Below, one piece after another: positions 17,274 through 31,007 of a stretch of 33,277 bases of DNA. How positions within the stretch are numbered: the stretch's first letter is position 1; each line of letters starts with the position of its first letter. The position numbers and the translations under genes are program-made. Origin of the DNA: a virus (taxonomy: Duplodnaviria; Heunggongvirae; Uroviricota; Caudoviricetes); IMG/VR virus record IMGVR_UViG_2778261295_000004; one strand, 5' to 3'. The notes under the pieces were generated by a model. The model was not told where the DNA came from. It saw nothing but the letters and a program-made list of their open reading frames with translations, and did not search any database.

Positions 17274-17477
17274 TCAGTCCCATAGCTGGACGGTCTGCAC
17301 GGTGGTGGTCGTCGGAATGTCCGGCAGCTCCACCTGCAGCCCGTGAGGTAAAAAGGGGCTGTATTCGGCAAGCCCCGGATTTGCCTTCAGTACCTGCTCC
17401 GTGACACCCTGCGTGCGCCCGTAATGACGCCAGCAAAGTGCGTCCACCGTGTCATACTGATGCGCACGCACTTTCAT
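17274..17477 (-). CDS. X: Tail protein X
   Basis: 67-aa ORF; ATGA overlap with L; position L-X-holin. Confidence 0.8.
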   Translation of the reverse strand: MKVRAHQYDTVDALCWRHYGRTQGVTEQVLKANPGLAEYSPFLPHGLQVELPDIPTTTTVQTVQLWD

Positions 17478-17941
17478 CAGATAAGCTCCACTGTGCAGTG
17501 CGGCGCATCCTGCACCCGGCTGATGGCCCAGCGGGCGTCACGCCATAAATCACCGCTTGCTTCCGCCAGTTCCTCGCCTCGCTTCGCACCGGATGCCGTG
17601 GCGTCATAGTCCTGGTAACGTTCGTTGAGCATGGCGCGTGCCCAGCAGTAAACCGCGTTGAAATAGTGCTGAATGCGCTCGCTTTTGCCGTCCAGTTGTT
17701 CCGCCGGGACTTCTGCCAGCGAGGCATACCCCAGCATCTGCTGGCGTCTGCGAAACTCATACAGCTCTGCGTTGACCTCCGAAATTGCCGACAGCGCAAC
17801 CTGCTTTAAACGCGGCTGCGTCACCGTGCCGTCAGTGCGCATGACACTGCGAAACTCCGACAGGTCCACATCAGGCCAGAACGGCGTATTTCTAATGATT
17901 TCCGCCTGTTCCGGTGCCTGTTCTGGCGCAACAAACTTCAT
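17477..17941 (-). CDS. L: Head completion protein L
   Basis: Start placed at ATG 17941 preceded by AGGAGA; an alternative GTG start at 18004 (table ORF) lacks a clear Shine-Dalgarno. Confidence 0.8.
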   Translation of the reverse strand: MKFVAPEQAPEQAEIIRNTPFWPDVDLSEFRSVMRTDGTVTQPRLKQVALSAISEVNAELYEFRRRQQMLGYASLAEVPAEQLDGKSERIQHYFNAVYCWARAMLNERYQDYDATASGAKRGEELAEASGDLWRDARWAISRVQDAPHCTVELI

Positions 17942-18036
17942 GCTGCTTTCTCCTGAAATAAAGGGCGGTGGACGGGGTTTTGATGTGGCAGTGCCTTTCG
18001 CCACCCCGTGCCGCCCGTGCGCGGGGGCACGTTCTG

Positions 18037-18687
18037 TCAGCGGCTGTCATTGCGCAGTCTGCGCTCCAGCTGCTGTTTGTCTTTTTTCACGCCACAGCGG
18101 GGATCGAGCTGTAACGCATGGTTGAGATGATTAAGGGCGGAAGCCGGATTGCTTTCACTCAGGACAGCGCCAATCGCTTTATGCAGACGCGCCCGTGACT
18201 GGTCCGGCATATCCAGACCGTCTGTCAGCTCCAGCGTCTGCAGCAACAGATCGACATCAAAGCCGGTGGCGGCAAGCATTGCGCTCTGCGCAGCGTCTGC
18301 CATTTCCTCTGCCAGCACGGTCTGCACATTGCGATTACCCAGCGGCATCACCCAGCCATGACGCAGGGCATGACGCCCGATCTGCAGCGCCCCGGCATAA
18401 TCTCCGGCATCAATGCGCCACAGCATCACGTACATCAGCACGTCATCCTGTTGAGCGCCTCCGGCAGCCAGGACACCCTCTGCCCAGGCGGCGTATTTCG
18501 GCAGCAGCTCCACCTTGATTTCCGCTTTTTTGACCGTGGACTGAACGCCCTTGAGACGGCGGCGGTCTTCCGCCAGTTGCAGCAGCATCAGGTCATAGCC
18601 CGACGCGTGGCGAACACTGCCACCCTCGCGGGCGGCCTGTTCAGCCTGAACGCGCAGGCGATGCTGCCGTGCGGGACTCAGGCTCAT
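18037..18687 (-). CDS. M: Terminase endonuclease (small) subunit M
   Basis: 216-aa ORF after capsid gene N; P2 order O-N-M-L. Confidence 0.85.
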   Translation of the reverse strand: MSLSPARQHRLRVQAEQAAREGGSVRHASGYDLMLLQLAEDRRRLKGVQSTVKKAEIKVELLPKYAAWAEGVLAAGGAQQDDVLMYVMLWRIDAGDYAGALQIGRHALRHGWVMPLGNRNVQTVLAEEMADAAQSAMLAATGFDVDLLLQTLELTDGLDMPDQSRARLHKAIGAVLSESNPASALNHLNHALQLDPRCGVKKDKQQLERRLRNDSR

Positions 18688-18690
18688 GAA

Positions 18691-19749
18691 TTACGCTCCG
18701 GTTTCTGCTGCGGCGGCGCTGAAGTCACCAATCTGGATGTTTTCCACCAGTGCGGCGCAGCGGTAGTCCTCAACCACATAGGCTTCGTTAACGGATTCAA
18801 AGTTTTCAATCCGGTCACGTTTCGGGTTGTCGATAACTGAACGGCGGCGGGTGTCTTCCTGCCAGTAGATGGACAGGTTATCCAGACGGGTGATCAGCAG
18901 CGCATTCGGCGGGAAGAACGGCGCACGCACGGCCTGCAGGCCACCCATGCGTTTCTGGCTGATGATCATATCTGCAGCCAGTTTTTCACTGTTCTCCTGC
19001 TCTTTGTTGACCAGCGGGAAATACTTGTCAGACAGCAGTTCACGACCGCAAATCACCACCAGATCGTCATCGTCCTGGAAAACCACGTCGATAAGCTCAT
19101 TGACGGCATCCATCACCACAGCGTCCAGGTTGGCATATTCGCCACCTTTCCCGACTTTCACCGCACCCGGAGTGGTTTCGCCGCCCGTGGTGGTGCTGCC
19201 CATGACGTGATCCGGTGCATCTTCACGGATTTTCTGCAACCAGCCTTTGTTAACATCCTGCAGCAGCGGGTTTTCGCTGCGGTTGGAGTTTTTCGCACGC
19301 TTCACGCCGTTAAAGCCGATCATGATGCGGTCCAGTGCCTGACGTTTCACGATGGCGTCACGGATACGCACCTGGAAATCCTGAAACTTCGCCCACAGGT
19401 CCAGCTTCGCGTAGGTCAGCACCGTGTCAAAGTTGGTCTGCTCGCATTTATATTCCACATCGACCATCAGCGTCGGATCGACAGGTTCACGCTCTTTCGC
19501 GGTGGTGTCAGTGGTTCCGGCAATGGTGCTGCCAACACCCAGCCCCAGCAGCTGACCGGACTGCTCAATCACTGGGGTGACATTAATCAGCGTCAGGAAA
19601 GCGGCGGACTGCTGGATCTGGTCTTCCAGCGTCTGCTGCACAGACGGCTCCACAGTGAACTTGCTGGACAGTTCTTCAACTGCCACACCGTTCAGACGCG
19701 CCAGCTGCTGCAGGTAAGCGTTAAAAGCAAAGCGGGTATTCTTCTTCAT
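18691..19749 (-). CDS. N: Major capsid protein N
   Basis: 352-aa ORF after scaffold gene O. Confidence 0.9.
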   Translation of the reverse strand: MKKNTRFAFNAYLQQLARLNGVAVEELSSKFTVEPSVQQTLEDQIQQSAAFLTLINVTPVIEQSGQLLGLGVGSTIAGTTDTTAKEREPVDPTLMVDVEYKCEQTNFDTVLTYAKLDLWAKFQDFQVRIRDAIVKRQALDRIMIGFNGVKRAKNSNRSENPLLQDVNKGWLQKIREDAPDHVMGSTTTGGETTPGAVKVGKGGEYANLDAVVMDAVNELIDVVFQDDDDLVVICGRELLSDKYFPLVNKEQENSEKLAADMIISQKRMGGLQAVRAPFFPPNALLITRLDNLSIYWQEDTRRRSVIDNPKRDRIENFESVNEAYVVEDYRCAALVENIQIGDFSAAAAETGA

Positions 19750-19765
19750 CAGGTTTTGTGCTCCA

Positions 19766-20599
19766 TCAGCAATTGGTCAGAGTGTCAGCGGGGGCGTTAC
19801 CGCCTGTTGCACGCTGGCGGTAGTCCTGGCGGCTGTCTTCATGACTCAGCTTATTCACCAGTTCGTTAAAGGCGGTCTGCTGTGCCTGCAGGGCAGTCTC
19901 CAGCTCAGACAGGCGTTCTTCCTGCTCAGACAGGGATTTTTCGGTGCGTGCGCTCAGGTTTTGCTGCTCAGTGGCGACCAGCTCCACGGCCTTATGCACA
20001 TCAGAGAACCGGGCGTCATCGGACTGCTCTTTTTTGGTAAACAGCGCCGTGACGCGGGCAAACAGGGACGGTTTGTCGTCCTGGATTTCTTCCAGTTCGA
20101 TCACCGTTTCCTCTGCAGCGGTAAAGAGATTGGCAGGATTCTGCTTGCGGTTTGCCAACGGGTTATGGGCTGCACTGGCGCTGAATGTCAGCATTTCCGT
20201 ACCCAGACTGGCAGGGTCATCAGTGGCAGCCAGGCCGACCAGGTAGGCTTTGCCCGTATCAGCGAACTTCGGGCTGACTTCCATAGAGGTGAATAATTTC
20301 TGGCCTTTTTTCACCAGTTCCACCAGGGACTCCGTTGGCTCAACGTCAGCATACAGCGCCATCTTGCCTGCCAGCGGACCTTCCGTGATTTCTTCAGCAA
20401 ACAGCGCCGTCACCTTGCCGTAGCGGTTAAAGGTGCTGTCCGGCAGATAAGACTTGATGTGCTCAAGGTTAATCAGCGCGGTATACACCGCCGGGTTATA
20501 GCTGGCTGCCATCTGTTCCAGCCATTCACGCTGGATTTCGCGTCCGTCGGTGGTGGCACCTTCCACCCCGATGCGAAAACGCTTTGCTTTCACTGTCAT
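19766..20599 (-). CDS. O: Capsid scaffolding protein O
   Basis: 277-aa ORF with acidic, coiled-coil-rich C-terminal half, divergent from P. Confidence 0.85.
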   Translation of the reverse strand: MTVKAKRFRIGVEGATTDGREIQREWLEQMAASYNPAVYTALINLEHIKSYLPDSTFNRYGKVTALFAEEITEGPLAGKMALYADVEPTESLVELVKKGQKLFTSMEVSPKFADTGKAYLVGLAATDDPASLGTEMLTFSASAAHNPLANRKQNPANLFTAAEETVIELEEIQDDKPSLFARVTALFTKKEQSDDARFSDVHKAVELVATEQQNLSARTEKSLSEQEERLSELETALQAQQTAFNELVNKLSHEDSRQDYRQRATGGNAPADTLTNC

Positions 20600-20741: not shown

Positions 20742-22508
20742 ATGAACACCACACTGACACCCGCAGATCTCGATCCCCGTCGGCAGGCCATGCTGCTGTA
20801 CTTTCAGGGATACCGCGTAGCCCGCATTGCTGAAATGCTGGGCGAGAAAGTTGCAACCGTTCACAGCTGGAAAAAACGCGACAAGTGGAGTGACTATGGG
20901 CCGCTGGATCAGATGCAGCTCACCACCGCCGCACGCTACTGCCAGCTCATTATGAAGGAGCACAAAGAAGGGAAAGATTTCAAAGAGATTGACCTGCTGG
21001 CGCGCCAGTCGGAGCGCCATGCGCGGATCGGCAAGTTTAACAATGGCGGCAACGAAGCCGACTTAAACCCTAACGTCGCCAACCGCAACAAAGGCCCGCG
21101 CCGTCAGCCGGAAAAGAACGTTTTCACCGATGAACAGATTGAGAAGCTGGAAGAAATCTTCCATTCCTCCATGTTCAACTACCAGCGCCACTGGTGGGAA
21201 GCCGGAAAAACCAACCGCATCCGCAACCTGCTGAAGTCACGCCAGATCGGCGCGACCTTCTATTTTGCCCGTGAAGCCCTGATTGACGCCCTGCTAACCG
21301 GGCGTAACCAGATTTTCCTTTCCGCCAGCAAGGCACAGGCCCACGTCTTTAAGCAGTACATCATCGACTTCGCCAAAGAAGTGGAGGTGGAGCTGAAAGG
21401 CGATCCGATGGTGCTTCCTAACGGGGCCACGCTGTACTTCCTCGGCACCAATGCCCGCACGGCCCAGAGTTACCACGGCAACCTGTATCTGGATGAATAT
21501 TTCTGGATACCGAAATTCCAGGAGCTGCGCAAAGTGGCTTCCGGTATGGCTATTCACAAGAAATGGCGACAGACCTATTTTTCCACGCCATCCAGTCTGA
21601 CACACAGTGCTTATCCGTTCTGGTCCGGTGCGCTGTTCAACCGTGGGCGCAACAAAGCCGATAAGGTGGACATCGACCTGTCCCACAGCAATCTGGCCCC
21701 CGGCCTGCTGTGCGCAGACGGGCAATACCGCCAGATAGTCACCGTGGAAGATGCGGTGCGCGGCGGCTGTAACCTGTTCGACCTTGACCAGTTGCGCATG
21801 GAGTACAGCCCGGACGAATACCAGAACCTGCTGATGTGCGAGTTTGTGGACGATCTCGCGTCCGTGTTTCCGCTCAGCGAGCTGCAGGCGTGCATGGTTG
21901 ACAGTTGGGAAGTCTGGACCGACTTTCATGCTCTGGCCCTGCGCCCGTTTGGCTGGCGCGAAGTGTGGATCGGTTATGACCCGGCAAAAGGTACGCAGAA
22001 CGGCGACAGCGCCGGATGCGTGGTGGTGGCACCGCCAGCCGTGCCTGGCGGTAAGTTTCGCATTCTTGAGCGTCACCAGTGGCGCGGGATGGACTTCCGC
22101 GCCCAGGCTGACGCCATCAAAAAACTGACCGAACAGTACAACGTGACCTATATCGGCATCGACTCGACAGGTGTCGGTCACGGTGTTTATGAGAACGTGA
22201 AAGCGTTCTTTCCTGCCGTCCGGGAGTTTGTCTACAACCCCAACGTTAAAAACGCCCTGGTACTCAAGGCCTACGACATTATCAGCCACCGCCGTCTGGA
22301 GTTTGACGCCGGGCATACCGACATCGCGCAGTCATTTATGGCAATCCGTCGCGCCACCACCGCCAGTGGCAACCGCCCGACCTATGAAGCCAGCCGCAGT
22401 GAAGAAGCCAGCCATGCCGATCTAGCCTGGGCAACAATGCACGCACTGTTTAACGAACCGCTGCAGGGCGAGTCCGCCAATACCAGCAATATTGTGGAGA
22501 TTTTTTGA
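20742..22508 (+). CDS. P: Terminase ATPase (large) subunit P
   Basis: 588-aa ORF divergent from O; ATG start; its stop overlaps the Q start (TGATG). Confidence 0.9.
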   Translation: MNTTLTPADLDPRRQAMLLYFQGYRVARIAEMLGEKVATVHSWKKRDKWSDYGPLDQMQLTTAARYCQLIMKEHKEGKDFKEIDLLARQSERHARIGKFNNGGNEADLNPNVANRNKGPRRQPEKNVFTDEQIEKLEEIFHSSMFNYQRHWWEAGKTNRIRNLLKSRQIGATFYFAREALIDALLTGRNQIFLSASKAQAHVFKQYIIDFAKEVEVELKGDPMVLPNGATLYFLGTNARTAQSYHGNLYLDEYFWIPKFQELRKVASGMAIHKKWRQTYFSTPSSLTHSAYPFWSGALFNRGRNKADKVDIDLSHSNLAPGLLCADGQYRQIVTVEDAVRGGCNLFDLDQLRMEYSPDEYQNLLMCEFVDDLASVFPLSELQACMVDSWEVWTDFHALALRPFGWREVWIGYDPAKGTQNGDSAGCVVVAPPAVPGGKFRILERHQWRGMDFRAQADAIKKLTEQYNVTYIGIDSTGVGHGVYENVKAFFPAVREFVYNPNVKNALVLKAYDIISHRRLEFDAGHTDIAQSFMAIRRATTASGNRPTYEASRSEEASHADLAWATMHALFNEPLQGESANTSNIVEIF

Positions 22509-23542
22509 TGGGAAAGAGTAAGAAGAACCGCGCTGCGTCGACGAACCAGATCCAGCATAAAAGCCAAACTTCAGCCGAAGCATTCAGCTTTGGCGATCCC
22601 GTTCCTGTTCTGGACCGCCGTGAACTGCTGGACTATGTGGAATGCGTACAGATGGATCGCTGGTATGAGCCGCCTGTGAGTTTCGACGGACTGGCGCGAA
22701 CCTTCCGCGCCGCCGTGCATCACAGCTCACCGATTGCGGTGAAATGCAACATTCTGACCAGCACCTACATCCCTCACCCGCTGCTCAGCCAGCAGGCTTT
22801 TTCACGTTTTGTGCAGGACTATCTGGTATTTGGTAACGCCTACCTGGAGAAACGCACGAACCGCTTCGGTGAAGTTATCACCCTTGAACCTGCGCTGGCA
22901 AAATACACCCGACGCGGTTTAGACCTGGATACCTACTGGTTTGTGCAATACGGCATGACCACGCAGCCGTATCAGTTCACGAAAGGCTGCATCTTTCATC
23001 TGATAGAACCGGACATCAACCAGGAGATCTACGGCCTGCCCGGTTATCTTTCTGCCATTCCGTCGGCCCTGCTCAACGAGTCCGCCACGCTGTTCCGCCG
23101 TAAATATTACATCAATGGCAGTCATGCTGGCTTCATCATGTATATGACCGATGCCGCGCAGAACCAGGAGGATGTGAACAACCTCCGCAACGCAATGAAA
23201 AGCGCCAAAGGTCCGGGTAACTTCCGCAATCTGTTTATGTACTCGCCTAATGGTAAAAAAGACGGACTTCAGATTATCCCGTTGTCAGAAGTCGCAGCGA
23301 AGGATGAATTTCTGAACATCAAGAACGTCAGCCGTGATGACATGATGGCGGCGCACCGCGTACCGCCCCAGATGATGGGAATTTTGCCGAATAATGTTGG
23401 GGGTTTTGGGGATGTGGAGAAGGCCAGTCGCGTATTTGTACGTAATGAATTAACGCCCTTGCAAAAAAGGCTACAAGAGCTGAACGACTGGCTGGGCGAA
23501 GAAGTGATTAAATTTACGCCCTATATTCTTTCAGAAGAATAA
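22508..23542 (+). CDS. Q: Portal (capsid vertex) protein Q
   Basis: Start refined to the ATG overlapping the P stop; the table ORF starts one codon earlier at TTG (22505). Confidence 0.9.
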   Translation: MGKSKKNRAASTNQIQHKSQTSAEAFSFGDPVPVLDRRELLDYVECVQMDRWYEPPVSFDGLARTFRAAVHHSSPIAVKCNILTSTYIPHPLLSQQAFSRFVQDYLVFGNAYLEKRTNRFGEVITLEPALAKYTRRGLDLDTYWFVQYGMTTQPYQFTKGCIFHLIEPDINQEIYGLPGYLSAIPSALLNESATLFRRKYYINGSHAGFIMYMTDAAQNQEDVNNLRNAMKSAKGPGNFRNLFMYSPNGKKDGLQIIPLSEVAAKDEFLNIKNVSRDDMMAAHRVPPQMMGILPNNVGGFGDVEKASRVFVRNELTPLQKRLQELNDWLGEEVIKFTPYILSEE

Positions 23543-23550
23543 TTCCGAAC

Positions 23551-24249
23551 TTATTTGTTTCTTCTTTGTTCACGCCTTGTCTTGGCTTCGATAAGGCGTT
23601 GAGGTTCAGTGTAAAGCCGTTCTAAAAAAAGATAGGTAAAATCTTCAAGATCCTCAGCAGCAGCTTTATCCAAAATACCTTCATGCGCGCCATCATTTCC
23701 GTCATCTTTAACGCATTCAGCTAGTTCCCTTAAAGCTTCAGGCAATAGATGATTATCAAATAACCAATCCATTCTTAACCCTAGGCTTCTCCTTATTTTT
23801 TGCGCAGGCCCTTGCTCCCCATCAGGAAGAAGTCCTTTTGTTGCATAATCAAGGCAAAGCCTAAACATGGTTGCTGCTGCATTATAACAACCAATAGCCA
23901 AACATTTCGCCCCTTCCTCATATGCACTATTGATATGCTCAGGTAAGAACTCTGGCGGCTCCTCTACTGCTAAGTCTGCCGGTGATATAGGCCTAACAAC
24001 CTCTGCAACTTCCTTTAAGCCGAATATTCCACTTTCCCAATTATAGCCATCTAAAGTTTTATTTTTCGTTAAAGGTCTGCAAAGAAACATTGTCGTTTTA
24101 TGACACTCTCGGCAAACACAATAGACCTCGTATTCGTATGTTTTACCCCCGCCCAATGCATTGTAAACCCTAGTGCAATTCAGCCCATTAACATCAAACG
24201 CTATTTTTTGTGATCCACATCGTGGACAGTCATCCACTAACATAACCAT
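23551..24249 (-). CDS. Cargo protein: N-terminal zinc ribbon plus C-terminal DUF4145/HEPN-like domain (candidate abortive-infection or defence effector)
   Basis: 232-aa ORF with strong GGGAGGAG Shine-Dalgarno; Cys motifs CPRC and CVCREC near the N-terminus; C-terminal ...LRELAECVKDDGNDGAHEG... resembles the GN-x-x-AH core of DUF4145 as I recall it; AT-rich compared with flanking phage genes. Confidence 0.55.
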   Translation of the reverse strand: MVMLVDDCPRCGSQKIAFDVNGLNCTRVYNALGGGKTYEYEVYCVCRECHKTTMFLCRPLTKNKTLDGYNWESGIFGLKEVAEVVRPISPADLAVEEPPEFLPEHINSAYEEGAKCLAIGCYNAAATMFRLCLDYATKGLLPDGEQGPAQKIRRSLGLRMDWLFDNHLLPEALRELAECVKDDGNDGAHEGILDKAAAEDLEDFTYLFLERLYTEPQRLIEAKTRREQRRNK

Positions 24250-24359
24250 GTCAATTGCTCCTCCCTATGAAAAAAATGAGTTGAAAAATTGAATATTCAC
24301 GACTTAAAAAGCTAGCCTATTTAACACCATAATTTCATTAATTCAACCATGAGCGCGCG

Positions 24360-24378
24360 CTCGTATCCCCGCCACGCC
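24360..24378 (-). other. Candidate cos cohesive-end core
   Basis: Minus strand reads GGCGTGGCGGGGATACGAG, matching in its first 13 nt my recollection of the 19-nt P2/186 cohesive end (GGCG(A/T)GGCGGGGAAAGCA...); adjacent perfect palindrome GAGCGCGCGCTC at 24351-24362. Confidence 0.4.
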
Positions 24379-24427
24379 TGCCCGCTTTGTGTAGTGGTTT
24401 TCATGCAGGTGCCTGATCCACGCAAAA

Positions 24428-24450
24428 GCCCGCCAGTTCTGGCGGGCCTT
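24428..24450 (-). terminator. Intrinsic terminator downstream of the 372-aa cargo gene
   Basis: gcccgccag / ctggcgggc stem followed on the minus strand by TTTTG; lies about 65 bp past the stop of the 24514..25632 gene. Confidence 0.5.
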
Positions 24451-24513
24451 AGCAAAAACGATCCTCAAACGGTCATGCAAATTCAGGCAGCATAGGCATG
24501 CACTGTTGTTAGG

Positions 24514-25632
24514 TTAGTTCGTAATGCCAATTTCCTTCAAAACTTTAGCCATTTCCGTCTGACTTAACTTGTTCCTGAACAAAGGGAAATTTTTCATTTT
24601 TTCCGCTCGTTGCCCTTTTGAAATAGTAATCTTTCCTGATGCTGATAACTCAGAGTCAAAAAAATAACATATTGTTGAATTTGAATTCTCCATATTTGAC
24701 TTGATACAATTCCATATGCTTTCTTTTTTCATTTCACACATTCTAGGACCAAAAATGATCCCTTTAACAACATTAGCATCATGATGAAAAATATGTCCAA
24801 TATTTCGATTTACGCGTCTTTGAACATGCCGCTCACTCCCTATTCCTGCATTTGCCTCTGGAATAAACATTCGATATTCAGCTTCATATCTCCAAAATCT
24901 ATTTTTAGTTAAAAATAACTCTGCAACATTTGCGCTTGGGTCTAGAAGTGAAACCTCTTTAGCCTGATTACTATATTTTATTTGCTTAACTGGAAAATTA
25001 AATTTATCTGATGAAAATAAATTTTCTCTTAGCTTCATTCCAGGATGTGGCACGCCATTAATATTAAAATCCTGCGTTTCATAAATCACAACACAACCAC
25101 TAAAGCCTGCAGCATAATGCGCCCACATCATACGATCTAACGCATTAGCTGAAAATGACACACTGAATACTGCAGGAACTATTTTCCTATACAACCTTTC
25201 TTTGATACTGTTCTCGCAAAGTGAGACCAAAAATTGGCGTGGTTCAGGAATATTCCCATAAATAGCGGAATTAATCACATTGATAGGTAGTAAACCATCA
25301 TTTATGATCTTACGTATCTCATCAACGTGTGAGTCAAACAGGCTATCTAATGACTCAATGCTACTTTTTATTTTTTTTCCTCTAAAAATACGATTCAATC
25401 CCTTATGTATCTTCAAATTACTCAAATCTAATATGTGACTCAAATTTTCATAGGATTTATCGCAAGGAGAACGCAATAAAATATCCCATAATTTCAATTT
25501 ATTATCAAAACGATAATCTATATTGAGATCATTAGGATCATTCAATTGCGCAGGAGCGGAAAAATATAATTCATTATAACGAATAGCTTTCTCGAAGAAG
25601 AAGTCCGGACGGTAATACTTGAAAAGATACAT
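24514..25632 (-). CDS. Cargo protein with DUF2971-like N-terminus (candidate anti-phage or abortive-infection protein, function unknown)
   Basis: 372-aa ORF, ATG start; N-terminal LFKYYRPDFFFEKAIRYNELYFSAPAQLNDPND resembles the DUF2971 signature as I recall it; strongly AT-rich and Asn/Lys/Ile/Phe-rich unlike the phage backbone. Confidence 0.55.
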   Translation of the reverse strand: MYLFKYYRPDFFFEKAIRYNELYFSAPAQLNDPNDLNIDYRFDNKLKLWDILLRSPCDKSYENLSHILDLSNLKIHKGLNRIFRGKKIKSSIESLDSLFDSHVDEIRKIINDGLLPINVINSAIYGNIPEPRQFLVSLCENSIKERLYRKIVPAVFSVSFSANALDRMMWAHYAAGFSGCVVIYETQDFNINGVPHPGMKLRENLFSSDKFNFPVKQIKYSNQAKEVSLLDPSANVAELFLTKNRFWRYEAEYRMFIPEANAGIGSERHVQRRVNRNIGHIFHHDANVVKGIIFGPRMCEMKKESIWNCIKSNMENSNSTICYFFDSELSASGKITISKGQRAEKMKNFPLFRNKLSQTEMAKVLKEIGITN

Positions 25633-26137
25633 GACATTACCTATAACATTGCAATATTAACAACCGTATGAAAACGGTTTGATTGTATTGATAATATCCT
25701 ATTCTGCATATACCACAGTGTAAAGATTAATTTTAAATACCATATCCAACAGTAAATCATGTATCGACCGCCAGATAAGAAGCTTTTGAAAAACTTGGAC
25801 AATAATTAATCAAAAGGTAAGAGATACTCTTCAAATACATGACGTTGGCTTCCTCTTTCGTGATAACTATCAAGACCAAGTCCATTAGATAATGGACATC
25901 AAATATTCCAAGTCAATCCAAGAACAATCATCATAAGCTCTTCCCATCCTGTATCCTCTATCTCACTCTTTTGGACATTGAAAGAAGCCCCTCTGACCGG
26001 GAATGATTGTTTCCAGCGTTTGACCACGATATACAATATGATATTTGATGTCTTTTGATCAGATGGCTAACGCCTCGCACAGCTCGTTGTTCAACCTTGC
26101 TGACGCCAGAAGCAAGTTCAGACGCCAGCAACGTTTC

Positions 26138-26371
26138 TTAATGCAGCCAGCTGTCGTCTTCCCACACCTTCTGCATAATTTTCATCACTTGTTTTCTTTC
26201 TTCGTCCAGTTGCAGTCCGGTCAGTTCCACACCGTTAGAGCTACCTTTGCGGATACGAATTACCGTTTTGGGATACAGGGGGCGCAGATTGCGGTAAAGC
26301 TCGGATTCAAGGGCGTCCAGGGTAGACTGGCTAATTTTCTGCTCTTTATCGATCATTATTTCAATGCGCAT
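26138..26371 (-). CDS. DinI-like SOS-response protein
   Basis: Start refined to internal ATG (MRIEIMIDKEQ...) with GAGGTG upstream; N-terminal MRIE... and C-terminal acidic W-containing tail resemble E. coli DinI. Confidence 0.8.
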   Translation of the reverse strand: MRIEIMIDKEQKISQSTLDALESELYRNLRPLYPKTVIRIRKGSSNGVELTGLQLDEERKQVMKIMQKVWEDDSWLH

Positions 26372-26381
26372 AAAAGTCACC

Positions 26382-26570
26382 TCAGCTGATGACATCCATT
26401 GAGCGGTTGTATTCGTGGCTTCTGATTTTTGCCATGAGTTCATCAGTCAATTCAGAAACCCACTGCAGAGCCAGCCCCTTCTCTTCATCACTACACTCAC
26501 TAGCCGCTACAAGCTTAAGAAAAAAATCAATGCGCTGGAGCTTCAAAGACTCCAAAAAATAGTCCTGCAT
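26382..26570 (-). CDS. Small protein (62 aa), first gene of the LexA-box operon; possible Tum-like antirepressor
   Basis: Internal ATG preceded by a perfect AGGAGG; the upstream part of the table ORF (to 26672) contains the LexA box and so is unlikely to be coding. Confidence 0.5.
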   Translation of the reverse strand: MQDYFLESLKLQRIDFFLKLVAASECSDEEKGLALQWVSELTDELMAKIRSHEYNRSMDVIS

Positions 26571-26611
26571 TTTTCCTCCTATGACACCACAAGCAATACT
26601 GTACACATAAC

Positions 26612-26631
26612 CACTGTTTATATTTACAGTA
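26612..26631. promoter_or_regulatory. LexA box (SOS operator)
   Basis: cactgtttatatttacagta fits the CTGT-N8-ACAG consensus with an AT-rich spacer; lies about 40 bp upstream of the small ORF start. Confidence 0.65.
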
Positions 26632-26723
26632 TATAATAATCTTACTGATGTAAAACGTTTTTTTACGTTCATCAGCCTGATATGCCTGGTATTATTAAGA
26701 GCACGAATTGTTAACCCGCGTAA

Positions 26724-29102
26724 TTAATACAGATCCCGCCACTTATCATCTTCCTGCAAACGCTGGTTCCGATAGAAGATACGCAGGCCTGCTCCTGACG
26801 GAATACTGCCGCCGCGAAGGAGTAAATCGACCTCTTTCTCGCTGCCATCAAATCCTCTGGACTTCAGTTCATAGACGAGCTGCTGTCGTTGATGGTCTGT
26901 AATTCGCTGTTTGTAGTCTCTACGCCGTTTCGGTTTCACCAGGCGTAACCTTGCAGCCAGTTCCCGGCGTTCTTTTTTGTTCATACTGTGCAGGTAATCG
27001 TGCAACTCCTTGTCATCCATACGGGTGATATCCGTTCTGGTATCCCCATCAGCTGATTTGTCTTTCCCTTGTTGGTACAAATTTTCAGCAAGGGGACAGT
27101 TATTGCCACGAGTCCGAGTCCAAGGGGCGCAAGCGCCCTGGTCGGCTGCCGCCTCCTGAACATCAACGGCCTTACGAACCATTTTCCACTTCACGGCATG
27201 AGTGCAGATCTTGCCCTCTGCAATAGGTGACCAGATGCCATAAATACGAATGCCGTGATCGCCATAGGCGGTCGGCTCTTCGTTGATTTCATAAGCGGTT
27301 CTGATGAGGTGATATTTGCGGGGAACCAGTACGCCGCCCTGCTTCATGATGTAGGTGGCAAAACAACCAGCATCAGCAGCAGCCAGGATGGCATCAAGGC
27401 GCGGGTTATCCAGTACCGGCGCACCTGCTTTTTTGTCCCCCTGTTGCCTTGCCGCCTGACCAGCCAGCAATCGCAGTTCACGGTAAGCCTGACGCCCCGG
27501 AATGCCAAAGAAGCGGAATTGCTGAACACGATGCAGAGACGCCCAGGCATTAACGTATTCAGCATTATCACGCAGGGATTTCCCCGTTTCCTTGCTGATC
27601 TCGCCAGCCAGACCACGCCCGTCAATGTTCTTACTGATGTATTTCGCGATGTAGCTTGTTGGCGTACCTTTGCGCGGGTTAATCAACTCAGACTTAAAGC
27701 GCGGCCCAGTGTTATTGCCCAGTTCCTCGCGGTCTTCACGGATGGCAAACTTACGCAGTAATGCAGTGATGGCGCGGCGGTCTTTTTTGCGCATAAAACA
27801 CAACAGGTGCCAGTGAACTGTACCGTCATGATGCGGCTCAGCCACCCGCACGCCATACCACCGCAATCCGGCTTTGTGCATCGCCTTACGAAATGCAGCA
27901 AACATGCCGACCAGATAATCACTGCTTTGTCTTACCGTCGCATTTGTCCAAGTTGGGTTGGGCCTGCCATTATTTAGCGTGGAATGGAAACGTGACGGAC
28001 AGGTGATGGTGTAGAAAACGGCGCAGTCACCGCGCATTTCCGCGATAAGCTCCAGGCCTTTAACACAGGCCATCATCTCATTGCGGCGATGCGCAGGGTT
28101 GCTGCTGCTGGCGTTTACCACATCCTCCATGTCCAGCGTGTCGCCGTCTTCGTTCACCAGTTCATGAGAACGAAAAAACTCCAGCGACTTACGGCGCTGC
28201 TCACGTTTATGCATCACGGCTTCATAGCTGACATAGGGAGATGCTTTTTTGCTGACCAGGCAGACAGCACGCAACTGCTCTTCCCGCCATTCGCAACGCA
28301 TCTTCCATAATTTCCGGTACCACCAGTCAGCGCACAACATACGCGCCAGCGAACCCGGAATGAGTTCATAGGGCACGGGTTTACGGCGGTTTCTTTTCCG
28401 GCGGAGTTGCTCAAACGCAGGCGGGATGACATCCAGACGCAGGGTTTCCGCTGCCACCTTTTCCCATGTCTTGCGGATTTCTTCTGGCTTAACGTCATCG
28501 GTGACATACAAATCGCCACAAGCTGCATCAAGGCACATGCTCATATGCGCAGCTACCAGGGTGGACAGGCGTTTCACCTGATCCTGACTCATTTCAGGCA
28601 GGATCAGCAGGCCGTCCAGCCCTTCATGGCTTGCCATAAAGCGAAAAGAAGTGGATAGCTGACAGTCGCGTACATGCTCCAGCCGTTCCAGACATGGCTT
28701 AATCGTCTCACGCAAATAGCGGGAATAAGCCTTTGGCCTGCCCAGGCTGCTGAAGTATTCAATACGTTGCATCAGTGGCTTGCTGATATGGGAAGGCTGG
28801 GCATTAACGTCCGCCAGAATGACCATATCTGGATTAAAACGCTGCTGCTCATGCGCCAGCTTTGCCCGACTAATGAGCTTATCCTGCTCCATTTCGCGCT
28901 GGACAGGATCACGGGATTCATTAAAGAAATAACGCTCCCAGACCTGATCACTCAGTGCCTCGCGGCGCAGCTGTTCCTGCTCGTTATCGGCAGCGTACAG
29001 AGCGATCAGGTTTGAAAGCGCAGAAACTGAAGATTGCTCTTCCGTCTCTACGTAAGGATTGATTGCTTTTTTCTCAGCATTCCAGGAATAGCTGTAGTTC
29101 AT
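26724..29102 (-). CDS. A: Replication initiation protein A (rolling-circle endonuclease)
   Basis: Large ORF containing ...[18 protein letters not shown]... and ...[12 protein letters not shown]... motifs typical of P2 gpA-family initiators. Start placed at ATG 29102 (GGAGA upstream, TAATG overlap with the upstream gene); table ORF extends to 29153. Confidence 0.9.
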
Positions 29103-29932
29103 TACGCAATCTCCAGTTCGAGCTGTGAAGGCTGCAAACCATTCGACAGCCAATCAGAAACTGAAGGTGGGCGAACAGCTTCAATTGCACCTTTTAAAAT
29201 TGCGCAACGGTTTTTCAGAATGACAGCTTTCAGCTCCTTTTCCGTCAGATTGCGCGAATACTCAGCCTCCTGAATAGCCCGCGTCAGCTCAGGATATTTG
29301 CTATTAAATTTGGGGACATTGCAGGCAAGATTTGTACTGTCGGCAGTCGCCAGTGGGTAATTTCCCAACACACGACCGTCAAGCATGCGCAAACCATGAA
29401 CAGCTGTTTTGAAATTGTGTCGGCAATAAATTGCTTCAAAAGCGTCCTGCATACGACGATGCCAGTGCGCAGTTCTGATAGCCGCATATTCACCAGACGA
29501 TCCAAAGCAGACACGAGGCCATTCACGACATAGCTCGATAAGCCGATCGATTGACTCGTGCAGATGCCAGACGGGAGTTGCCTTCCCGTAGAACATTTTC
29601 GGAACTTCGTTTATCAGGGCATCATTGTCACGTTCACCTCCGTCCACAACATCAGGAATGACAAAAAAAGCGACCTTAGGATGGTGGTAATAGTTCAGGA
29701 GCCATTTATAAAAATCACTCCAGTTAATTTTTAGCCCACGCACCCATGCAGAAAATGCGCCGTTATCAATGCCGACGACCTGAGCGTGCTGAATGGACGC
29801 CGCAATCTGATCTGGTCGTACATAGGAGACGAAAGCGCCAGCTCCGCTCACCGCAATACGATGAACGTCGCCAGCACTTCCCCAGACAGGCGTCCCATGG
29901 AAATGATGAATTCCGTGGTGCATTTCTTTCAC
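29102..29932 (-). CDS. Hypothetical protein between dam and A
   Basis: 276-aa ORF, GTG start overlapping the dam stop (alternative ATG at 29923); translationally coupled on both sides. Confidence 0.5.
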
Positions 29933-30783
29933 ACTTGCACCCCGAAAATAACAGTAGAGTCACGTCCCCTACTAAAATCGGCACTAAACCAATTAGCAGA
30001 TTTAGTGGCAATCATCTCTGTTGCAAATTTTCCCTCCCCCGCTGCAACGCCGATGCTGCGTTTCGCCCTGATGTAGTGGTGAGTGAAATTACGATAAAGG
30101 GACCGGGTCAAAGACGTGTTACTGTTAGAAACAATGACCGGATGTCCTTCTGATGACCGATGTTCAAGAATGGATGCCAGGTGATACTGATCATCTTCAG
30201 TGAAACCATCAGTGTGATAGCCGGAAAACGTACCGTCATAAGGCGGATCGCAATACACCACATCCCCCACCTTCAACATCGCCAGCGTTTCATCAAAGCT
30301 GGCGCAGATAAACGTTGCCCGCTGGGCTTTCTCTGCAAATGCGCGAATTTCTTTTTCAGGGAAATACGGATTTTTATAATTACCGTAGGGAATGTTGAAA
30401 TGCCCGCTCTTGTTATAGCGACATAAACCACGGTAACCGTGACGATTGAGATACAGGAAATATACCGCTTTCATGAAATCAGTAATTTCAGTGGAGTAAT
30501 TAAACTCCTGCCTTATGTTGTAATAAGCCACCTCCCTGTTTGCTTCCTCAAATAAAGCTCTGGCACGAGATATAAACGCCTCACAATCAGCAGCAACCTT
30601 TTTATAGAGGTTGATTAAATCAGGATTAATATCCGCAACAAGATAGCTGGGGTAATCCGTCTCCATCATCACTGCACAGGAACCCGCGAAAGGTTCAACC
30701 AGTCGCGGGCCAGCAGGAAGATGCTTTTTCAGTTCGGACATTATGGCGGTTTTATTTCCTGCCCATTTCAGGATGGTGCTCAT
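29929..30783 (-). CDS. dam: DNA adenine methyltransferase (Dam family)
   Basis: Start refined to ATG ([11 protein letters not shown]...) with GGAGGTG upstream; contains the ILKWAGNK and DPPY motifs of Dam-type N6-adenine methyltransferases. Confidence 0.85.
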
Positions 30784-31007
30784 ACAGCACCTCCGTTGTA
30801 ATGTTTGCCTTTCAGCTCTGCGATTTCCTGACAGGTAATGCAAAGCTGCACACCCGGAATGGCACGGCGGCGTGCTGGCGGAATTGGCGCTTCACACTCA
30901 ACGCAAAGCACGCGGGACACGCCCGGCGTTTTGGCACGGGCAGCACGGATATGGCGTTGGCGTTCTTCTTCAACGCGCTGCTGTACGAGATCCATTGCAT
31001 CAGCCAT
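30780..31007 (-). CDS. TraR/DksA-family C4 zinc-finger protein
   Basis: 75-aa ORF with CVEC ... CITC spacing; ATGA overlap with dam. Confidence 0.75.
   Translation of the reverse strand: MADAMDLVQQRVEEERQRHIRAARAKTPGVSRVLCVECEAPIPPARRRAIPGVQLCITCQEIAELKGKHYNGGAV

Follow-up and report, generated by a model that had tools for sequence, protein, structure and literature searches.

A probable P2-family cos site between two accessory genes of an Escherichia coli prophage

We consider it very likely that positions 24353-24503 of the window, i.e. the whole 33,277-nt stretch of viral DNA analysed here (IMG/VR record IMGVR_UViG_2778261295_000004), form the cos site of a P2-family prophage (Fels-2/Elveevirus-like) in E. 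coli. The initial annotation had proposed a packaging site embedded between two cargo genes, and our data uphold this proposal, as homology to P2, 186, PSP3 and P4 flanks the GC-rich core on both sides and the 19-mer found here has been mapped as the cohesive end in E. coli HS. We establish the sequence homology and the boundaries of the module, the independent exchange of the cargo and the presence of the terminase genes. This cos type and the hotspot around cos are already in the literature, as is the mapping of the cut in a sister prophage; the architecture is common, and the cos result raises no new question. It sets the predicted physical ends of the packaged genome for the window prophage, with both accessory genes intact, self-contained and approximately 130 nt away from the termini, and can help to annotate the element, to place the limits of cargo in the P2 hotspot and to design cos-plasmid or transduction constructs.

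Positions 1-2700 of the window represent E. coli chromosome carrying grxA-ybjM-ybjL with 100% identity to many E. coli genomes, and the P2-family prophage adjoins ybjL. Just downstream of ybjL, at 2765-2778, we found the att core AACAAAAAACCCAT, which was reported for the inducible HS prophage (PMC8008629 Table S3) and therefore marks the end of the prophage and an integration site being the same as that of the HS phage. The integrase and the second att site are outside view since the CI repressor gene is cut off by the end of the window. The minus strand of the window corresponds to the P2 map orientation, and the layout gpM/N/O - gpP - gpQ - cargo - cos - cargo - DinI - gpA is the order of the P2 family:

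17477-20599, minus strand: gpL/gpM/gpN/gpO (Pfam)
18037-18687, minus strand: small terminase subunit, homologous to gpM, presumed to recognise cos (Pfam Phage_term_smal, E = 2e-40)
20742-22508, plus strand: large terminase subunit, homologous to gpP, presumed to cut cos (Pfam Terminase_6N, Terminase_6C, Terminase_5)
22505-23542, plus strand: portal gene, homologous to P2 gpQ, bounding the hotspot on its left (Pfam Phage_portal; P-Q-cos order as in P2/186)
23551-24249, minus strand: left-end cargo gene, 232 aa, DUF4145, pointing inward from the predicted left terminus (Pfam PF13643, E = 4e-7)
24514-25632, minus strand: right-end cargo gene, 372 aa, DUF2971, transcribed toward the predicted right terminus (PADLOC PDC-S31, E = 3e-23; Pfam DUF2971, E = 3e-4)
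26138-26443, minus strand: DinI
26724-29153, minus strand: gpA

According to the Pfam assignments, both cognate terminase subunits (gpM and gpP) are encoded by the same element as cos. The site is located beside gpQ, on the gpA side, matching the records of P2, 186, Fels-2, SEN8 and HS. Upstream of gpA, the early region of the prophage also encodes a D12-class (Dam-like) N6-adenine methyltransferase (29929-30843, minus strand).

The region between the two cargo genes contains the following features, given in the order of their coordinates:

24318-24346, minus strand: candidate sigma-70 promoter, TTGAAT (24346-24341), a 17-nt spacer and TAAATA (24323-24318) with a TG upstream of the -10 (a consensus guess)
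24351-24362: perfect 12-nt palindrome GAGCGCGCGCTC (direct reading)
24353-24407, minus strand: homologue of the 55-bp P2-family cos core (TGCATGAAAACC...AAAGCGGGCA, 19-mer, CGCGCGC; alignment)
24353-24503, minus strand: whole conserved cos module (-125 to +26 of the cut) with cargo junctions at both edges (column conservation, BLAST breakpoints)
24360-24378, minus strand (P2 map orientation): predicted 19-nt cohesive end 5'-GGCGTGGCGGGGATACGAG-3' (sequence match to annotated or mapped cos)
24408-24503, minus strand: right-arm part of the module with repeated (T/A)GCAT(G) boxes (tetramer count, alignment)
24424-24450, minus strand: intrinsic terminator in the cos module, GGCCCGCCAG-AA-CTGGCGGGC-TTTT (fold)

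Reading the minus strand from 24378 to 24360 directly yields GGCGTGGCGGGGATACGAG, exactly as it had been annotated, and the closeness to the P2/186 cohesive ends that had been noted for it holds: the 19-mer is identical at 15/19 positions with 186 and PSP3 and at 14/19 with P2 and P4, the ends of which are annotated in their records. Its first 13 nt are the same as in 186, its start fits the GGCG(A/T)GGCGGGGA pattern of the 19-nt P2-family overhangs, and the 13-mer GGCGWGGCGGGGA occurs a single time in the 33-kb window. The final six bases of the overhang are TACGAG, differing from the AAGCA(C/T) present in P2, 186, PSP3 and P4, so that applying P2 biochemistry to this site leans on the read-start data for HS rather than on classical end sequencing.

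We aligned the joined right and left ends of the P2, 186, PSP3 and P4 records with the window, Fels-2, SopEPhi, vB_EcoM-813R9 and vB_YpM_MLG42, which shows the similarity to the cos regions of P2, 186 and PSP3 extending well past the GC-rich core. All aligned sequences share the pattern TGCAT(T/G)AAAACC-N-AAAG(C/T)GGGC(A/G), followed by the 19-mer and (T/C)GCGCGC; for P2, 186, PSP3, P4 and the window this can be written as TGCAT-AAAACC-...-AAGCGGGC, then the 19-mer, then GCGCGC, i.e. these flanks are kept in all five. The concept of a 55-bp P2 cos core goes back to Ziermann & Calendar 1990, as cited in PMC5694545; its exact limits as used here, from TGCAT to GCGCGC, were derived from the P2/P4/186 alignment. 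Within this core 41, 43, 44 and 44 of 55 positions are identical to P2, 186, PSP3 and P4, respectively, and the best ungapped match of the core elsewhere in the window, on either strand, reaches 29-31 of 55. Using the 153-bp module as a query, BLAST found matches in 89 phage records, the lowest E-value being 7e-56.

The question of the virion ends, which had been raised together with the annotation, is effectively answered on a close relative. For the mitomycin-induced prophage of E. coli HS, read-start analysis and PhageTerm gave GGCGTGGCGGGGATACGAG as cos (NC_009800 926016-926034; Zuend et al. 2021, PMC8008629, Suppl. Table S4), i.e. ends identical to the 19-mer of the window. The termini were thus demonstrated in other work on a module identical to that of the window at 134/151 positions (89%), with one mismatch in the 55-bp core as counted from the alignment, and by analogy they are predicted for the window prophage. 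HS phage 1 furthermore shares the att core and has the layout gpA-DinI-ORF-cos-ORF-gpQ with ORFs flanking cos on both sides, differing in that these encode hypothetical proteins of 225 aa and 463 aa, where the window has DUF2971 and DUF4145. The same cos type is found in SEN8, Fels-2, SopEPhi and Cartapus (Felsduovirus/Elveevirus, Peduoviridae) with an identical 19-mer and modules being 87-92% identical, and different cargo flanking it except for the left side of Cartapus. For Salmonella phage SEN8, whose record begins with the 19-mer, exactly this sequence was given as cos (PMC5427200). In Escherichia phage Cartapus, the record of which is 98.7% identical to the left flank of the window, the 19-mer lies within a 'putative cos site, homologous to the cos of P2 phage'. 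Both the SEN8 and the Cartapus record label cos as 'putative', and the LF82 paper on Cartapus gives coverage and does not report termini.

To delimit the module we scanned IMG/VR for the pattern, resulting in approximately 120 loci, 44 of which carry the identical 19-mer and were anchored at the cut for analysis of column conservation. In these 44 loci the columns are conserved from -125 to +26 and drop to noise directly outside both edges. A 501-bp query across cos and its flanks has matches in 1250/5426 complete E. coli genomes, in which the BLAST alignments break at 24352-24354 and 24503-24504. The aligned sequences contain additional TGCAT(G) boxes upstream of the core. Measured from the cut, the right-arm part of the module in the window has GCAT at -123, -100 and -28 and ATGC at -121 and -115; these five GCAT/ATGC tetramers in 126 nt compare with a mean of 1.17 elsewhere, a count reached by 5/527 comparison windows. 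The (T/A)GCAT(G) boxes of the window (Fels-2 type) group line up with those of P2, 186, PSP3 and P4, and they are plausibly candidate recognition repeats for the terminase small subunit. A search of 23400-26200 against Rfam for known structured RNAs gave no hit at E <= 1.

The palindrome next to the cohesive end, described before as a perfect GC palindrome, is present at 24351-24362 but is not conserved as such, as just (C)GCGCGC is kept across phages. It is composed of the CGCGCGC at 24353-24359 that is conserved in cos, of CTC at 24360-24362 (plus strand), which is the end of the overhang, and of GA at 24351-24352, which is the junction of the DUF4145 cassette; its outer GAG/CTC arms hence consist of the last three overhang bases and of cargo-junction bases. 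We ruled out the 12-nt palindrome as a conserved element since CGCGCGC alone is kept among phages with the same 19-mer, and its symmetry is a chance extension of the invariant GCGCGC. That GAGCGCGCGCTC is an element independent of cos, such as the site of a dimeric regulator or nuclease or a recombination site, we regard as highly improbable. Its perfect 12-nt symmetry at a cargo junction would fit such an element, as would the invariance of GCGCGC at this position across P2, 186, PSP3, P4 and the window group, but the latter is explained by cos itself because the invariant part is formed by the last 6-7 bp of the 55-bp core. Furthermore, the symmetry is lost in Fels-2, SopEPhi, 813R9, MLG42, SEN8 and HS, which share the 19-mer and read ...GAGCGCGCGCA(A/G)..., and in E. 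coli H22, which reads GAGCGCGCGTTC, and an inverted-repeat search with a 6-nt seed did not list the palindrome. The hairpin in the right-arm part has to be weighed in a similar way. On the plus strand 24428-24447 reads GCCCGCCAG-TT-CTGGCGGGC, a G+C-rich inverted repeat, and the minus strand folds into a G+C stem of 9-11 bp followed by TTTT (z = -3.2 for the whole 116-nt segment), so that a terminator hairpin at 24428-24450 is present as initially annotated, with stem and TTTT on the strand of the upstream genes. The 372-aa ORF on the minus strand (24514-25632) has its stop codon 64 nt upstream of it. Being placed inside the conserved module and kept whatever the right-hand cargo, even in loci without right cargo, the hairpin could mainly be a structural cos element, i.e. 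a recognition site for the terminase or of the IHF type, and the aligned position in 186, PSP3 and P4 is indeed occupied by an inverted repeat, either GCCAG..CTGGC-like or GCGCC..GGCGC. We nonetheless find this reading quite unlikely. While 28/44 window-type loci have a stem of at least 6 bp plus TTTT regardless of cargo, a stem of at least 6 bp is found in 2/32 P2-type modules and a T-run in 0/32, P2 packages normally without the hairpin, and the window-type hairpin has all the parts of an intrinsic terminator, in the same orientation as the genes upstream of it. An alignment of nine sequences had suggested the inverted repeat at -70..-50 as a universal covarying cos element, and the survey of approximately 120 loci speaks against it by these same counts.

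The hairpin is thus a lineage-specific terminator of the Fels-2-type module and, by its near-absence from P2-type modules, not a general element of cos. It would end the transcript of the right arm (DUF2971 and read-through from DinI) 50-70 bp before the right terminus. A more far-reaching model, according to which the terminator insulates cos, i.e. terminase binding or end annealing, from cargo transcription and the sharp junctions (7 bp inside the left overhang and at -125) reflect an exchange of cassettes via recombination at free cohesive ends, is speculative and in our estimation rather improbable; recombination at free cohesive ends as the driver of exchange was put forward as a speculation by Rousset et al. 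(PMC9122126). If true, the module would be a defined portable 'landing pad' with its edges directly giving the minimal cos. Concerning the loop, we observed AA at 24437-24438 in 16 loci with the full 9-bp stem, as in the window, and TT in 6 including HS and Fels-2, the stem being unchanged.

The location of cos implies by geometry, as had been proposed, that the two cargo genes occupy the two ends of the linear genome, with the ATG of the DUF4145 gene 129 nt inside the predicted left terminus and the stop codon of the DUF2971 gene 135 nt inside the predicted right terminus. The 232-aa protein shares 231/232 residues with CARTA_1 from Cartapus, the prophage of LF82, where the same gene is likewise found beside cosL, and 232/232 with the homologue of E. 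coli H22; it has a weak PADLOC match to PD-T7-4 (E = 1.4e-6, 25.9 bits). PDC-S31, the family matched by the 372-aa protein, is a candidate defence family in PADLOC. The G+C content is 0.29-0.36 for DUF2971 and 0.41-0.44 for DUF4145, compared to 0.52-0.62 for the gpP/gpQ/gpA backbone. The DUF4145 and portal genes converge with 8 bp between their stop codons and no evident terminator there.

The gene content between gpA and gpQ varies among related prophages, with breakpoints at the edges of the modules. The DUF2971 gene (97-100% identity) recurs in many E. coli P2-like prophages with AIPR, PIN, retron St85 or hypothetical genes as left partners, and the DUF4145 gene occurs with other right partners, namely a P-loop NTPase in strain H22 and Cartapus's own genes, showing that left and right cargo genes are exchanged independently. 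Since each of them is found with other partners, DUF2971 and DUF4145 forming one two-gene system across cos is mostly rejected. In a diverged prophage (L136; NZ_LR882997.1 1241095-1246593) with approximately 82% nucleotide identity over window positions 22400-26800, the same two cargo families are arranged in the same way around cos, with 203/232 (DUF4145), 302/372 (DUF2971) and 303/345 (portal) amino acids identical to the window. The pairing of DUF4145 and DUF2971 has therefore persisted through considerable divergence, though each also has other partners.

The region between gpA and gpQ is a known cos-proximal hotspot described by Rousset et al. 2022 (PMC9122126) and re-surveyed in 2026 (de Sousa/Rocha group, PMC13586616), and the slot between cosL and gpQ was described by Dodd & Egan 1996 and Nakayama 1999, as cited in PMC5694545. 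The window shares with this hotspot the variable AT-rich accessory genes directly beside cos that are swapped between otherwise similar prophages and is unlike it in nothing essential, filling both sub-slots, left and right of cos. Neither of the two cargo genes belongs to the experimentally validated defence genes. Among the loci with the same 19-mer the distance from cosL to gpQ ranges from 164 to 3375 bp; in the 21 loci with both sides measurable it lies between 183 and 3375 bp, with 17/21 exceeding 300 bp. DinI and cos are 206 to 2580 bp apart. In 9/21 loci cos has substantial inserts to its left and right, as in the window (821 and 1762 bp). In P2-type loci cosL and gpQ are separated by ~179 bp in 24/28 cases; accordingly, the gap of ~180 bp without a gene in P2/186 corresponds in the window to the 821-bp slot carrying a cargo gene.

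As the cos module and the terminator fill everything upstream, a dedicated promoter of the DUF4145 gene must lie in 24250-24352. TTGAAT and TAAATA elements had been suggested for it within 24255-24330; the pair does exist on the minus strand but lies partly outside this interval, and a scan with the sigma-70 consensus returned zero minus-strand sites in 24250-24350. In the L136 locus the TTGAAT of the -35 is kept and the TAAATA of the -10 is not.

By homology with P2, 186 and P4 we infer cleavage of the site in the window prophage, a role of the TGCAT boxes and the efficiency of the terminator, which leads to the following model. After excision and replication, a terminase formed by the gpM homologue (18037-18687) and the gpP homologue (20742-22508) would act on the site, recognising the right-arm part of the module of approximately 125 bp by its TGCAT-box repeats and the AAAACC...AAGCGGGC element. 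It would introduce two nicks 19 bp apart, at 24379|24378 on the minus strand and at 24359|24360 on the plus strand, resulting in a packaged linear genome with 19-nt 5' overhangs, GGCGTGGCGGGGATACGAG and its complement, the ends of which would re-anneal upon injection. The left terminus would start with 7 conserved bp followed by ~103 bp of the DUF4145 upstream region, and the end of the right arm would comprise the DUF2971 stop codon (135 nt), the terminator (50-70 nt) and the AAAACC...AAGCGGGCA element, the module-borne terminator halting right-arm transcription short of cos. Such a cut would split neither cargo gene nor any promoter-gene pair. As just 7 bp (CGCGCGC) are conserved left of the overhang, both flanks are free for accessory cassettes.

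An alternative to this model is that the site, although truly homologous to cos, belongs to a prophage that is defective (cryptic) and is a relic that is never cut or is perhaps used in trans by a co-resident P2-like helper. The window ending within the CI repressor gene with the integrase and the second att site beyond view would allow for this, poor inducibility is common among E. coli P2-like prophages, and Cartapus, the closest phage record, has a very low titre and none of its virions were seen by TEM. Against it, gpL, gpM, gpN, gpO, gpP and gpQ are all full-length with strong Pfam matches, the cos core is one position off that of the HS prophage, which is itself inducible and packaged, and the att core is intact, so that we judge a defective prophage to be unlikely and favour a cos site that is cut by its own terminase.

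The cos of lambda (cosQ-cosN-cosB) is a functional analogue of the site described here, with staggered nicks by terminase, 5' cohesive ends and an asymmetric recognition region on one side, although sequence similarity is absent, the overhang is 12 nt compared to 19 nt, and the extended conserved region of the window-type cos, unlike that of lambda, is located in the right arm. The P2 terminase favours monomeric circles, the lambda terminase concatemers. A literature search for the direction of P2 packaging yielded nothing usable. A further variant of the overhang, GGCGTGGCGGGGAGAGCAT, was observed in five IMG/VR contigs (L018, L061, L090, L092, L107). Homologues of gpQ, gpA and DinI were undetectable within the DNA fetched for these contigs, which may be P4-like satellites or represent a more distant lineage using a P2-type cos.
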